Below, piece by piece: positions 24,180 to 29,512 of a stretch of DNA of 64,000 bases. Source of the DNA: a phage; NCBI GenBank assembly GCA_025812035.1, contig GCA_025812035.1_4719.1; one strand, given 5' to 3'. Positions within the stretch are counted from its first letter, which is position 1, and each line of letters starts with the position of its first letter. The notes beneath the pieces were generated by a model. That model was not told where the DNA came from. It searched no databases and worked only from the letters and a program-made list of their open reading frames with translations. A program made the position numbers and the translations under genes.

Positions 24180-24719
24180 TTAAGCTCCTTTCTGTTTTGT
24201 TTTGATTGATGATGTTAACCAGGACGATCTTACAGTGAAACCCTCAGACTCATAGAACGCCTGGGCTTCGTCGTTATCAGCACGAACATCCAGACCGATA
24301 GAATGCCCACCGCATCGGTAAGCGATGTTACGTGCTTCATTCATCAAGGCGTGGCCGATACCACGTCCACGGTATTCTGGTTTTACAACAATCGATGTAA
24401 CGTCATGAATGCCCATATGGCTCTCTGTATTCACTTCCAAGAGACCTACTGGTATCGAAGCGACGGCGTCGATCATAACGACCAACTTTGCGGTGTCCGG
24501 TAAACGCTTTTCTAATTCTAAGGCATCGTATTCACGTTTTAAGTCAGGGATATTCTCGAACATAAACGTGGTGGCCCACGCCTCTGATTCTACATCGTCG
24601 AGAATACGATACAGTTCACGAATCTGTTGTTTATGTGGATAAAGGTGTGGGTCAGCGGCCGTTGAGGCGATAACGCAATAGAACGGTCGTTCATTAATAA
24701 CTACTGTTTTGATGCTCAT
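24180..24719 (-). CDS. GNAT family N-acetyltransferase
   Basis: motif A VVKPEYRGRGIGHALMNEA and C-terminal ...AQAFYESEGF; start overlaps the stop of the upstream HTH gene by 4 nt. Confidence 0.65.
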   Translation of the reverse strand: MSIKTVVINERPFYCVIASTAADPHLYPHKQQIRELYRILDDVESEAWATTFMFENIPDLKREYDALELEKRLPDTAKLVVMIDAVASIPVGLLEVNTESHMGIHDVTSIVVKPEYRGRGIGHALMNEARNIAYRCGGHSIGLDVRADNDEAQAFYESEGFTVRSSWLTSSIKTKQKGA

Positions 24720-25222
24720 GCTAAAATTCCCTCATTACCTAACAGTCGATTACAGTGACGTCGGTACATTTGACAAAGTGTTGTGATTTGATAAAGTTTG
24801 TTATAGCGTATCTCGATACGTTTTTGCACCTCTTTCCATGGAAGTTTATCGTATTGTCGGTAACGATGAATTTCATTTAACATACGAAGACGAGTAGGAT
24901 CGGTATTCTTTATTGTCGTGAGCTTCACGCGTTGGTATCCGCGCTGTAGTCCCGATTCCGAATACGTGACACCAAACTCATCCTGAATGATAGTGATGAT
25001 CTCCCGCCATCGGCGCTTCTCACCGTCACGTAAGTGCACAACCCGTGCCAGAATGTCGTTCCGATTACGATGACTCAGTTTAATATTAAGCATCGAAGCG
25101 ATCGCGCTAATTGCTCTCTGACTCCGTCCTAATGCTTCACCGATTTCTTTTGATGTCATGACGCCAGCGTTTCGGCGTATGAATGCGATTTCGGTTGTTG
25201 TGTATTCTTTACCTGCTGCCAT
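24716..25222 (-). CDS. Myb/SANT-like HTH repeat protein (array member 6)
   Basis: repeats with pattern W/Y-x2-[ED]-E-x-x-x-[LI]...IA..L.RS..AI; paralogous to the five upstream genes; alternative start at 25159 possible. Confidence 0.5.
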   Translation of the reverse strand: MAAGKEYTTTEIAFIRRNAGVMTSKEIGEALGRSQRAISAIASMLNIKLSHRNRNDILARVVHLRDGEKRRWREIITIIQDEFGVTYSESGLQRGYQRVKLTTIKNTDPTRLRMLNEIHRYRQYDKLPWKEVQKRIEIRYNKLYQITTLCQMYRRHCNRLLGNEGILA

Positions 25223-25692
25223 TTCTTACCACGTGTGTTATAATAGTAACGCTGACAAAGATGTGTGTGATGATACTCCCGCTTGAACTCAACACTGATG
25301 ATGCGAGCAACTTCTCTCCAGTTAACCCCTTCACGTCGAAGTGCTGTGATGCGGTCTGAAATTTTGCACCATTCGCCAGGATCGTATCGTCGTAGCTTAT
25401 GACGTCGTATCACAGAGGCGACGCTTGCTTTCGAGCGGCCAAGGTGATTCGCCATTTGTTTAACCGAGTATCTGTGGATATTGCTACGGATATAGGAAAG
25501 CTCATCGTCAGTATACGTGGCGTTGGTTCTCGGCGAAGGGAACAACACGTACAACTTATTCTTAATCGCGCTTTCTGTACGTTGAAATACAGTAACCAGA
25601 TCACTAATCGGTGGTCTGGGTATCTGATATGCGTAATTCTCGAGGCGTGTGAGTTCCTCATCTGTCCAGCGACGGTACTTGCGCATGGGCAA
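25156..25692 (-). CDS. Myb/SANT-like HTH repeat protein (array member 5)
   Basis: three repeats (RWTDEELTRLENYAY...; TYTDDELSYIRSNIHRYSVKQMANHLGRSKASVASVI; third repeat ...CQRYYY). Confidence 0.5.
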   Translation of the reverse strand: MPMRKYRRWTDEELTRLENYAYQIPRPPISDLVTVFQRTESAIKNKLYVLFPSPRTNATYTDDELSYIRSNIHRYSVKQMANHLGRSKASVASVIRRHKLRRYDPGEWCKISDRITALRREGVNWREVARIISVEFKREYHHTHLCQRYYYNTRGKKWQQVKNTQQPKSHSYAETLAS

Positions 25693-26161
25693 CTCCTTTG
25701 TTTTTCATGTAGTAGCACCAACGTTGATACAACGCATGTTTATTCGTTGTAATCCCAAATTTAACAACAACGTCGTACGTAATAACATTCCAATTTTGGG
25801 TAACGTTAAGTCGTTCCGCGATAAACGCGATGATCGCTTCCCGTTCTTGCTTGGTTAATGCACGACGAATTCCATTAAGCCGTATAAACTGACGAACTGA
25901 GTCATACGAACGGTTTAAATCGTACGCGATCTCACGCAACGATTTTTGTTTGATTACGGACTTAATATACGCACGTTCTTCTTCCGTATATGGTCGATGC
26001 TTTTGGCGTTGGCGTATTCCCAAACGCCCCAGACACGCGTCGATGCTGGCGTGTGTTCGTCCTGTCCGTTGTGCAATTTCATCAATCGTCAGCGACGTGT
26101 TCAAGTACAGATGTGTAACATCTTTTAACTCATCGTTACGCCACGGCCGAGGTTGTCCCAT
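25658..26161 (-). CDS. Myb/SANT-like HTH repeat protein (array member 4)
   Basis: three repeats (PWRNDELKDVTHLY...; PYTEEERAYIKSVIKQKSLREIAYDLNRSYDSVRQFI; ...YQRWCYY). Confidence 0.5.
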   Translation of the reverse strand: MGQPRPWRNDELKDVTHLYLNTSLTIDEIAQRTGRTHASIDACLGRLGIRQRQKHRPYTEEERAYIKSVIKQKSLREIAYDLNRSYDSVRQFIRLNGIRRALTKQEREAIIAFIAERLNVTQNWNVITYDVVVKFGITTNKHALYQRWCYYMKNKGVAHAQVPSLDR

Positions 26162-27120: not shown

Positions 27121-27132
27121 AATGCCACCCCA

Positions 27133-27453
27133 TCAACGTCTTACTTTAAGCGATATGCTGTTTCGAAAACAATAGCATCGGATGGCGTGTATGCTACGAT
27201 TCATTATTTCAGCAATTTCGTTAAGAGTATGTTTCTTTGCGAGTGCTGCAACCTTAACCCTTTCTTCTGGCGTGTATACTCCCCCGCGAGGCGGTAGACC
27301 ACCGCGTTGTTTCCTCAACTTGATATAACGTGCCCGAATAGAGCACGGTGTTCGATTCATGCTTCGCGCTACTTCTTTATAGCTTGCTTTTGGTGACGTG
27401 CTAAGAATAAGCAGCAGCGTTTCATCTTCTTTATCCGTCCAACGTTTACCCAT
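27133..27453 (-). CDS. Myb/SANT-like HTH repeat protein (array member 1, two repeats)
   Basis: start revised to ATG at 27453 (AAGGAG upstream); [14 protein letters not shown]...[17 protein letters not shown] and [33 protein letters not shown]. Confidence 0.5.
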
Positions 27454-29512
27454 CTTTTCTATTCTCCTTAACCTTATCAATCATCGAAATAAGCATGTTG
27501 ATACTTTCTTCTTCGTTATCGGTTGCATCCCAGTCTTGGATAACGGGAATCCCCAGCGCTTCAGCTTTCGCGAGTTTACTACCTGGATTACTTCCACAAA
27601 CAAGAATCGTTGTGTTTTTACTTACACCGCTTGTGATTGTGGCTCCCATGGTCGCTAAACGCGTGGCGAGTTGATTTCTATCAATACCATTGAAGCTTCC
27701 CGTAATAACGACACGCGTATCTAATAACGGTAACTGATTCATATCGCGTTCCTTAACTGGAGCTGGCGTTACACCGACGTCGTATAACAAATCGAAGATA
27801 TATCCGCGATTTGCTTTATCGTAGATGTACGTTAAGATCTGATCGGCTGTGATCTCGCCGATACCTTCAACGGTCAGTAAGCTTTCTTTATCAGCAGCTA
27901 AAAAGCTATCTACTGTCTTAAATGCGTTAGCAAGATCGCGTGCTGTGCTTTTACCTACTGTAAGAATACCTAACCCGTAGATGAAACGTGCTAACGTAGT
28001 CTCTTTGGATTTTTGGATGGCGTCGATAACCTTGAAGGCGCTATAATCCGTAAACCCGTCCAGCTGACTAACCTGTTCACGAGTTAACAGATAGAGATCA
28101 ACCGCAGATTGCACCAACCCACAGTTGTACACCTGTTCCAAGAACCGTTCGCCGACACCTTCGATGTCCATGACGTCACGACTTACCCAGTGAATCAGTC
28201 GTCCTACAGCTTGATCTGGACATGATGAGGTTGCAGGGCAACGCCAACGTGCTTCATCCTCCTTTTTCATTAATGCGGTACCGCAAGTTGGGCAACGAGT
28301 CGGAAAAATGATTTCTTTTCTTTCATCGCCTGGACGCACGCTCACGATTTGAGGAATGACGTCACCCGCGCGTCGGATAACAACATCATCACCAATGCAC
28401 ACACCTAACCGTTTTATTTCGGCTTCGTTATGCAGTGTGATGTTGCTTATCGTTGTGCCTCCAACGAACACAGGTTCGACGCGAGCCACAGGAGTGATAC
28501 TTCCGGTTCGACCTACTTGAAAATCAACATCAAGCAAACGGGTGGCTTTTTCTTGCGCTGGGAATTTCCATGCACGTGCCCAACGTGGTGCGCGAGAGGT
28601 TGCGCCGAGCTTCTCCTGCATCGCAACATCATTCAGCTTTATCACCATACCGTCAATATCAAACAAGCGCTGCTCACGTCCTGCAAGCATATTGCGATGC
28701 GCTGTAATTAACGCTTCAGTCCCAACGACGATATGCGATTCGTTATATAGACCTAACCCTAACGCGGCAACAATCCCCATTTTTGAACCTTGTGTTGCGA
28801 ACGCGTAAGCATCATCATCCATGAAAACATCGTAAGGGCAGAACAACAAACGACGTTTTGCAACGGTTTGTGGATCCAAACGTCGTAACGTACCTGATGC
28901 TGCGTTACGTGGATTTACGTATGGTTTTTCATTGTTTGCGATGAGTTCCGTGTTCAGAAGTTCGAATGCTTTGTGTGGCATCAACACTTCACCGCGGACT
29001 TCGATTTTCTGTGGTGCTGATGCTCCCATCTTCAGTTGCGGTAAAACACCCATTACCGTACGAATATTCGATGTGACATCTTCACCTTGAACGCCGTCCC
29101 CACGGGTTACCGCACGCTCTAATGAACCACCACTGTATTGAATCGCAATCGCTAATCCGTCGTATTTGGGTTCGATCAAGTATTCGAGCGTGTCTTCTGC
29201 TACCCCTAAGGTTTTTGCGACGGACTCCGTCCAATTCCGCAACTCTTCTTCACTGAATAGGTTATCCAGAGACATCATCGGAGACGGATGCTTCACGGTC
29301 TCAAAACCATCGACCGGTGTACCTACACGACGTGTTGGGCTGTTAGGTGAAACCTGGTCAGGATGTTGCGCTTCATATTCCCGTATCGTTTTCACCATGA
29401 TGTCGTATTCTTCGTCGGTGTATTTCGGTTCCGCTTTAACATGGTAATAGTAATCGGCTTCAAGGATCGTATCGATGAGTTTAAGATAGTCTAATACGGT
29501 AGTGATTTTCAT
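27446..29512 (-). CDS. ligA: NAD-dependent DNA ligase
   Basis: 688 aa; adenylation motif [10 protein letters not shown] (KxDG), [14 protein letters not shown]-fold, Cys4 zinc region, HhH and C-terminal BRCT-like segment in the canonical LigA order. Confidence 0.9.

Follow-up and report, generated by a model that had tools for sequence, protein, structure and literature searches.

Here, we describe six adjacent genes in a 64,000-nucleotide stretch of phage DNA (contig GCA_025812035.1_4719.1 of NCBI GenBank assembly GCA_025812035.1; hereafter the window). The genes, which we call A to F, are co-directional paralogs on the minus strand that occupy positions 24716-27480, encode proteins of 106 to 176 amino acids built from tandem helix-turn-helix (HTH) domains, and stand between a gene for an NAD-dependent DNA ligase and a gene for a GNAT N-acetyltransferase. 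From 24000 to 28000 the window is 91% identical in nucleotide sequence, over the full length of the region, to Escherichia phage vB_EcoM_Goslar, in which genes A-F correspond to gp119-gp114. Goslar is a 237-kb virulent jumbo phage, in keeping with the original prediction, made from the letters of the window, that the phage is virulent; because its genes include those for a nuclear shell protein, for PhuZ tubulin and for split RNA polymerase subunits, it is a nucleus-forming chimallivirus. In its RefSeq record only gp119 is named, as a 'SANT/Myb domain-containing protein', and the remaining five proteins are 'hypothetical'. We find that the array is a clade-specific, anciently expanded set of D5-like/Myb-like multi-HTH proteins of a known kind, and not a new kind of system. 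The loci of relatives were taken from Logan, ENA, NCBI and IMG/VR, and seven further Goslar-like loci were examined; below, L001 is Goslar, L010 is phage T5, and L002, L006, L008, L013, L017 and L018 are Goslar-like loci.

Gene structure of the array

The six co-directional open reading frames that had been predicted are all present, as are their overlaps. In the order of transcription, gene A (27133-27453; 106 amino acids, gp119) begins with an ATG at 27453 that follows an AAGGAG Shine-Dalgarno sequence, and a TTG-initiated extension of this gene to 27480 is probably not used. Gene B (26653-27120; 155 amino acids, gp118) has its probable start at 27120, after a gap of 12 nucleotides, and gene C (26136-26639; 167 amino acids, gp117) at a GTG at 26639, after a gap of 13 nucleotides. 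From here on the genes overlap: gene D (25658-26161; 167 amino acids, gp116), probably starting at 26161, shares 26 nucleotides with C; gene E (25156-25686; 176 amino acids, gp115), whose ATG at 25686 lies 7 nucleotides behind an AAGGAG, shares 29 with D; and gene F (24716-25222; the long form of gp114), probably starting at 25222, shares 67 with E and 4 (24716-24719, ATGA) with the GNAT gene. A recognisable Shine-Dalgarno sequence precedes every gene of the array but F, where the long-form start has a weak GGTAAG only. We nevertheless prefer a product of 168 amino acids for F over the 147 amino acids called in RefSeq, since the reading frame stays open through the N-terminal extension, which is conserved across five lineages and contributes helix 1 of the first HTH.

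An additional gene of 235-239 amino acids, without a match to any family, is found in Goslar (gp120; L001 7453-8160) and in L018 (2950-3669), where its insertion point falls precisely after the Shine-Dalgarno sequence and before the ATG of gene A (window equivalent 27446-27460). It is not present in the window, L002, L006, L008 or L013. The 45 upstream nucleotides that precede gp120 in Goslar are identical to those that precede A in the window, and the gene has therefore been gained or lost as a clean cassette.

Paralogy, domain architecture and predicted fold

All-against-all blastp of the six proteins returned co-linear alignments of 27-90 bits, the 90 bits being those between C and D, and the paralogs are 21-35% identical. 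Together with the match of all six to one protein family (below), these alignments show a relationship beyond chance, and the six are true paralogs as originally proposed. B, C, D and E share a plan of three domains, R1-R2-R3, to which E adds an unconserved tail overlapping the start of F. Gene A encodes R1-R2, and F lacks R1 and encodes R2-R3 followed by a repeated R3 (R3'): by blastp, residues 7-107 of F correspond to 60-164 of E and residues 129-153 to 125-149 of E, and F contains two domains recognized by hidden Markov model. Judged from sequence, A-E are descendants of one R1-R2-R3 ancestor with three HTH domains of 3 helices each. In the window, Goslar, L008 and L018, A is short through secondary loss of R3, as the slot-A proteins of L002 and L006, at 152 amino acids, still carry this domain.

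That each protein would contain two or three HTH repeats had been read from a recurring motif, which is present and is supported by structure prediction. An AlphaFold2 model of D, built with 18 aligned sequences, has nine helices arranged as three 3-helix bundles, R1 (residues 7-47), R2 (58-98) and R3 (102-156), joined by basic linkers. Its mean predicted local distance difference test score (pLDDT) is 82.6 and its predicted template modelling score 0.44, the latter being low as expected of a beads-on-a-string arrangement. Modelled alone, R3 gives a confident 3-helix domain (pLDDT 94.6), so that each of the three domains has a predicted 3-helix fold. In each of the 30 orthologs examined, the isoelectric point lies between 9.7 and 11.0.

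A profile search of the PDB placed first, among natural proteins, the archaeal CRISPR-repeat-binding two-HTH protein 2lvs (E 1.3e-8), followed by R2R3 of c-Myb and the Myb repeats of SNAPC4, and a Foldseek search with the whole protein likewise placed 2lvs at the top, along with Reb1-Ter and the bipartite DNA-binding domain of Tc3. For R3, Foldseek returned the HTH domains of the Mu, SETMAR and IS3 transposases, the SANT domain of DMAP1 and the HTH of a small terminase, all of them weak, as is expected for a domain of 55 residues; a sequence search of the PDB with R3 found designed repeat proteins only. In a viral structure library the Goslar paralogs scored best; HTH regions of phage endonucleases came next, and a Vibrio phage 'D5 protein' ranked 30th.

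Family membership and relation to characterized proteins

All six proteins match PHROG 323 ('transcriptional regulator, D5-like') among 38,880 families, with E values from 1.5e-10 to 1.6e-19 (A 1.8e-19, B 2.5e-18, C 4e-13, D 3.8e-15, E 1.6e-19). D5 of phage T5 itself matches PHROG 323 at 1.2e-71; the matches of A-F span roughly positions 90-270 of the 319 in the profile and thus do not reproduce the full-length architecture of D5. In a profile-profile comparison with hhalign, R1-R2 of the array aligned with residues 134-235 of D5 (probability 86%, E 5e-6). According to the T5 record, D5 binds DNA, is needed for DNA replication and late transcription, and takes part in shut-off. Like the array, D5 (T5.118) has the homologous tandem HTH module and is encoded directly downstream of NAD-dependent ligase genes. 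Unlike the array, it is a single gene of 255 amino acids, about 130 of which form an N-terminal region, whereas the array consists of six diverged copies whose products add a third domain, R3, confined to the Goslar clade; moreover, T5 relies on the host RNA polymerase and Goslar-like phages on two polymerases of their own. In T5, gene D5 lies directly 3' of the two NAD-ligase genes ligA and ligB (L010 10365-13078), mirroring the ligase-then-HTH order of the window. Chance may account for this likeness of neighbourhood, given that the Moabite and RSL2 ligases lack a neighbour of this kind; a search for an ancestral single copy beside the ligase in other jumbo phages found none downstream of either.

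When 1.8 billion representative proteins were searched exhaustively with a profile, 12,077 relatives were found at E <= 1e-3, and the best of those outside the Goslar clade are proteins of 300-900 amino acids with 4-10 tandem copies of R1-R2, some of them fused to a helicase. With a word-indexed protein search, matches were confined to Goslar-clade proteins. Modules of the R1-R2 type in sequenced phages are also fused to HNH endonucleases and DNA methylases, as seen in mycobacteriophages, and are present in 'D5-like regulators'. Given these fusions to endonucleases, methylases and helicases, the repeat is a widespread, generic DNA-targeting module; on the sequences compared, what is specific to the Goslar clade is the six-gene array and the R3 domain. 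No nuclease domain occurs in A-F among their Pfam, PHROG and NCBIfam matches, and the PHROG matches to HNH proteins cover the HTH part only.

Pfam thresholds are passed by A (Myb_DNA-binding), B (Sigma70_r4_2 and HTH_28) and C (Sigma70_r4_2) only, with D-F giving sub-threshold scores on assorted HTH models. The original description of the repeats as Myb/SANT-like is supported in the broader form of Myb/SANT-like or sigma-region-4-like tri-helical HTH units, a Myb model passing for A and Sigma70_r4_2 for B and C. The Myb models (PF00249, PF13921) score A at 33.2 bits against a cut-off of 24.4, B at 14-16 bits, and D-F not at all; C has a sub-threshold match to Myb_DNA-bind_5 (14.6 bits against 21.7). 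The array shares with Myb R2R3 and SANT domains the tri-helical fold, as predicted, and a W-[ST]-x-E-E-D opening of helix 1. It differs from them in that R1 and R2 retain only the first of the three spaced tryptophans of the aromatic core, and in that D-F fall below the Pfam thresholds; R3 keeps the second (the invariant W124) and an aromatic residue at the third position. Likeness to region 4 of sigma-70 and ECF (extracytoplasmic function) factors is confined to the HTH of B (34.2 bits) and C (27.1 bits), which exceed the gathering threshold of 25.7. There is no region 2 or 3, Sigma70_r2 matches none of the six, and the NCBIfam sigma models reach 17-20 bits against cut-offs of 43-169; an identity as sigma factors is rejected on these grounds.

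Cbp1 and Cbp2 (2lvs, NF040595) resemble the array proteins in being small and basic and in consisting of two or three tandem homeodomain-like HTH domains alone, with short linkers. They differ in that they are archaeal and bind CRISPR repeats, and there is no CRISPR or other repeat array near A-F. NCBIfam NF040595 gives 22.4 bits for C and 19.9 for D, short of its cut-off of 140, and the similarity to 2lvs is that of a shared module only. Jumbo phages are reported to encode between 1 and 15 transcription factors of their own, with an expansion of Myb-type proteins in Bacillus phage G (PMC7824862). The RsfA-like set of phage G is, like the present array, a lineage-specific expansion in a jumbo phage; it belongs to another phage group with another host, and the Goslar-type copies form a strict tandem array of six slots, which that survey does not mention. 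The initial view that the arrangement is not a described system thus stands in one part and falls in another: the array is not discussed in the literature that we searched, but its family is catalogued as PHROG 323 and Myb-type expansions in jumbo phages have been noted (PMC7824862).

Conservation, selection and allele exchange

All Goslar-like loci have the order ligase, six HTH genes, GNAT, and the best match of each slot is the protein in the same slot of the other genomes. The six slots occur in the same order in 6 of the 6 arrays compared in full. Variation in copy number, which had been suggested as a check and was sought in the seven further Goslar-like loci, was not observed: every complete array has six genes. 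The whole 237-kb genome of Goslar contains exactly six members of the family, all within the array (the next six-frame open reading frame has E 0.04), and the 64-kb window contains none elsewhere. The low identity among paralogs and this slot-by-slot orthology agree with the proposal that the expansion is old rather than recent.

That the expansion was also 'diversifying', in the sense of positive selection, is contradicted by the ratio of nonsynonymous to synonymous substitution rates (dN/dS). Among close relatives this is 0.04-0.19 for A-F, similar to the 0.05-0.12 of most flanking genes, and A-F are accordingly under purifying selection. One flanking gene, p199, has a dN/dS of 0.29 against L008, at very low divergence. 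Diversity does exist at the population level, as divergent alleles at slots A and C-E. Across the more distant Goslar-like genomes, ligase, F and GNAT are 82-98% identical, and slot A falls into two allelic types that are 55-58% identical; the types of slots C, D and E are 45-50%, 37-43% and 44-49% identical, respectively. In L018, identity to Goslar is 97% for the ligase, 91% for A and 94% for B, then 48, 39 and 48% for C, D and E, and again 88% for F and 90% for GNAT. The C-D-E block of L018 is instead 89, 89 and 72% identical to that of L006, although the flanks of L006 differ. The allelic types of slots A and C-E have thus been shuffled between genomes by recombination; the duplications are ancient and the copies non-redundant, yet divergent alleles are exchanged within the array.

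The putative recognition helices, R2h3 and R3h3, are the most conserved element within a slot (identity 0.81-0.82) and the least conserved between slots (0.19-0.22), which suggests that each slot probably has a target of its own. Between allele types about half of the recognition-helix residues differ; conservation is 50% for the recognition helices and 41% for the rest of the protein, and the helices are thus not significantly better kept (p = 0.12).

Transcription unit and candidate promoters

The array lies within an apparent transcription unit that runs from a gene of 94 amino acids through the ligase gene, A-F and the GNAT gene to a gene of 142 amino acids, and is bracketed by two near-identical elements composed of a hairpin and TTATGCCGAT. 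The element that opens the unit (29839-29879, minus strand) is a GC-rich hairpin, CCCTCCCATTGCGGGCGGG..., directly followed by TTATGCCGAT, and is a candidate terminator and TATG-type promoter. The one that closes it (23715-23749, minus strand) consists of the hairpin CCCTCCCGTTATGGGAGGG and then TTATGCCGAT, and probably starts the next unit, that of a methyltransferase gene. The 10-mer TTATGCCGAT has two exact copies in the window, one in the 29839-29879 element and one at 23715-23724. Late promoters of the non-virion polymerase of phiKZ have the sequence TATG, in which the G is the start site (PMC4666361), and by analogy the opening element may act as a promoter of this type.

A recurrent feature of the window is an intergenic GC-rich hairpin on the minus strand, often CCCTCCC...GGGAGGG, with T(T)ATGC within a few bases. 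Such sites lie at 12661-12699, 16520-16551, 19421-19445, 23715-23749, 29839-29879, 39620-39647, 41217-41268, 47592-47617 and 60454-60494. The design resembles a terminator joined to a TATG-type promoter for the non-virion RNA polymerase, if the late promoters of phiKZ are a guide. Sigma-70-type promoters and intrinsic terminators around the array are at or below the counts expected from shuffled sequence, which is unsurprising given that the phage uses its own polymerases.

A second conserved element, of about 44 nucleotides and containing TATATTACCTAGGTGA, occurs at 19837-19880, 49421-49464 and 12178-12205 of the window. TATATTACCTAGGTGA is found upstream of the Goslar shell gene chmA (Goslar 172971) and at window position 19844, and TATATTAC has 10 copies in Goslar on the gene-sense strand and 0 on the other. 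This motif is probably the early promoter consensus of Goslar-like phages, used by the virion RNA polymerase. It was not found before the array unit; with a hairpin and TATG at the bounds of the unit and no early-type motif in front, the array would be expressed after the early phase. A search for operator-like DNA repeats near the array found none.

Proposed function and alternatives

Considering family, fold, charge, conservation and genomic context together, we infer that the six genes most likely encode multi-HTH proteins that bind double-stranded DNA and act on phage DNA, either as regulators or as architectural, template-organising proteins, and we hold this explanation with moderate confidence. 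The products would be six separate, strongly basic proteins of the T5-D5-like/Myb-like repeat family, each with two or three independent 3-helix HTH domains on short basic linkers. Each would read an extended site of approximately 20-30 bp by placing successive recognition helices in successive major grooves, as bipartite binders of the Tc3, Pax and Cbp type do. Whole-gene duplication of one R1-R2-R3 ancestor would have preceded the divergence of the Goslar-like phages, with six non-redundant genes kept since and co-transcribed with the DNA ligase and GNAT genes. Acting on phage DNA after the early phase, the proteins may serve as temporal-class or locus-specific regulators, or as template organisers for transcription or replication by the phage's own machinery. 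Such a role would parallel that of T5 D5, with its DNA binding and its requirement in replication, early shut-off and late transcription.

Several observations weigh against this explanation. The match to D5 is limited to the HTH module, the N-terminal 130 or so residues of D5 having no counterpart in the array, and R3 has no match outside the Goslar clade in the profile search of representative proteins. The fold does not in itself specify a regulator, since the same repeats also target HNH endonucleases, methylases and helicases. The family was not found in the ligase neighbourhoods of Moabite and RSL2 or in the first 50 kb of phiKZ, and this absence makes it impossible that the array is a general set of chimallivirus transcription factors. 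A scan for hairpin plus TATG gave 12 hits against 2-12 in shuffled controls, a modest excess, and the TATG assignment is made by analogy with phiKZ. Lastly, our literature search found no work on Goslar gp114-gp119.

The closest rivals concern where and how such DNA-binding proteins would act. They could be host take-over factors, staying in the cytoplasm and binding the host chromosome or the host RNA polymerase, perhaps by mimicking sigma region 4 at the beta-flap or by repressing host defence or stress genes. The phage nucleus of the Chimalliviridae excludes most proteins (PMC12908238), which makes cytoplasmic action the default. The passing scores of B and C on Sigma70_r4_2 and the position of the array in an extended run of small accessory genes, as take-over regions typically show, point in the same direction. 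We nonetheless regard this reading as unlikely, as there is no sigma region 2 or 3 and no match to an anti-sigma family, the closest characterized relative, D5, acts on phage processes, and the unit lacks the early-type promoter that would be expected of immediate take-over genes. Alternatively, the proteins could be architectural or 'chromatin' proteins that coat or condense replicating phage DNA cooperatively and with little specificity, as reported for T5 D5, in support of replication, recombination or packaging. High positive charge, homology to D5 and co-transcription with a DNA ligase, the neighbour of D5 in T5 too, are all consistent with this possibility. Six diverged paralogs, each conserved and each with recognition helices particular to its slot, are however not what non-specific coating calls for, and none of the six is named in the main text of the paper on the Goslar virion structure (where the only 'gp119' is that of PhiKZ), so that we consider this reading quite improbable. 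The mosaic of alleles raises the further idea of a module for competition between phages, in which the allelic types of slots A and C-E would be 'specificity types' comparable to the immunity regions of lambdoid phages, favouring their own genome or hindering co-infecting relatives. The sharpness of the mosaic, with Goslar-like flanks around an L006-like C-D-E block in L018, and the replacement of about half of the recognition-helix residues between types would fit; yet ordinary phage mosaicism gives the same pattern, the genes for p142 and the 199-amino-acid protein also vary, no cognate operator repeats lie near the array, and recognition helices and the remainder of the proteins do not differ significantly in conservation. 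We give this idea little credence.

Two further readings fare worse. The original prediction offered, as an alternative, an antitoxin-like partner for the GNAT (24180-24719, minus strand; 179 amino acids, gp113; Acetyltransf_1, E 9e-15). This role, or that of autoregulator of a GNAT that is toxic, would fall to F alone or to all six genes. In TacAT/AtaRT-type modules a small DNA-binding gene lies upstream of a GNAT gene. The F-GNAT order has this layout, down to the 4-nucleotide overlap of TacAT, AtaRT and KacAT, and the ATGA is retained in every lineage seen, so that GNAT appears to be translationally coupled to F throughout; short overlaps are, however, common along the operon. The best matches of the GNAT are generic GNATs, RimI, SpeG, YpeA and N-terminal acetyltransferases, with rimI-like NCBIfam matches under the cut-off, and no tRNA-acetylating toxin (TacT, AtaT, KacT or ItaT) is among its 45 PDB hits at E <= 0.01 or in NCBIfam. 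As the GNAT is a generic acetyltransferase, a toxin-antitoxin pair is not supported. Unlike the known modules, this one has no ribbon-helix-helix (RHH)/DUF1778 fold, F matching HTH-type models only, and it belongs to the operon of a virulent phage. PADLOC, used to look for defence or anti-defence systems, returned nothing for GNAT or F, its two sub-threshold matches for E and weak methyltransferase-type matches for a 216-amino-acid protein being irrelevant to such a pair, and in Moabite-like and other jumbo phages the genes for related GNATs stand without an HTH neighbour. We consider the antitoxin proposal very improbable. Least credible of all is that the genes are decayed homing-endonuclease genes, leftover DNA-binding domains with no function for the phage. 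The weak PHROG matches to HTH regions of HNH endonucleases (phrog_1891, 8446, 7545), the endonuclease and methylase fusions of the same repeat in mycobacteriophages and the endonucleases among the fold neighbours are what such an origin would leave behind, but purifying selection on intact reading frames and an order fixed in all fully compared arrays effectively refute it, and no nuclease remnants are present in any frame.

A narrower version of the favoured explanation, action on phage DNA, is that the six proteins are promoter-class or locus specificity factors for the sigma-less RNA polymerases of Goslar-like phages, each bringing in or keeping out a polymerase at a set of sites of its own inside the phage nucleus, and that the divergent, recombining C-D-E alleles are mutually incompatible regulatory 'types' that would set co-infecting relatives apart. 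Chimalliviruses have two sigma-less multisubunit RNA polymerases, whose choice of middle and late promoters is unresolved (PMC4666361, PMC7598289), and for phiKZ-like phages, in which this specificity is open, a phage-encoded DNA-binding recruiter has been proposed (PMC4666361). We consider this version a long shot; if true, it would provide a concrete handle on middle and late promoter specificity in phiKZ-like phages. More generally, the array offers a conserved, clade-specific candidate set of DNA-binding regulators in Goslar, an E. coli model for nucleus-forming phages, and its allele mosaic is a natural experiment in the evolution of DNA-binding specificity or in compatibility between related phages. 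Should the proteins prove to be ordinary accessory regulators, annotation would still be improved, in that five 'hypothetical proteins' of Goslar acquire a family and gp114 a corrected start.

Neighbouring genes and other features of the window

Upstream of the array, the unit begins with the gene of 94 amino acids (29509-29793, minus strand; Goslar gp122), to which no function is assigned, followed by the ligase gene (27446-29512, minus strand; 688 amino acids, gp121), whose product has the Pfam domains DNA_ligase_aden, OB, HHH and BRCT. Downstream, both neighbours named in the original prediction, a GNAT and a methyltransferase, were recovered, with the gene of 142 amino acids (p142; 23750-24178, minus strand) between them. 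The GNAT, if co-expressed with the lysine-rich HTH proteins, could conceivably acetylate them. The 142-amino-acid gene, the last of the unit, has no assigned function and is 60-93% identical among relatives; it is reduced to an open reading frame of 39 amino acids in L018 (6982-7101) and absent in L017 (1308-1423), and is therefore dispensable. The methyltransferase is a weak class-I S-adenosylmethionine-type match (23050-23700): this protein of 216 amino acids passes no Pfam threshold, matches PHROG 19090 at 1.7e-17, and has weak PADLOC matches to mad2 and Type II methyltransferase models.

In some Goslar-like lineages a Dam-like methyltransferase gene (MethyltransfD12) lies about 1.3 kb upstream of the ligase gene. 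It is intact in two contigs, L002 and L004 (both 424-1250), and split into two open reading frames in two more, L003 (426-1250) and L005 (423-1250). The corresponding stretch of Goslar has no gene annotated as a methyltransferase, a statement about annotation only, as no search aimed at MethyltransfD12 was made in either Goslar or the window. Elsewhere in the window, a large minus-strand gene of the tail or tail-fibre region contains seven diverged tandem units of 120 nucleotides (9162-10284; 65-70% identity), which imply a protein repeat of 40 amino acids.

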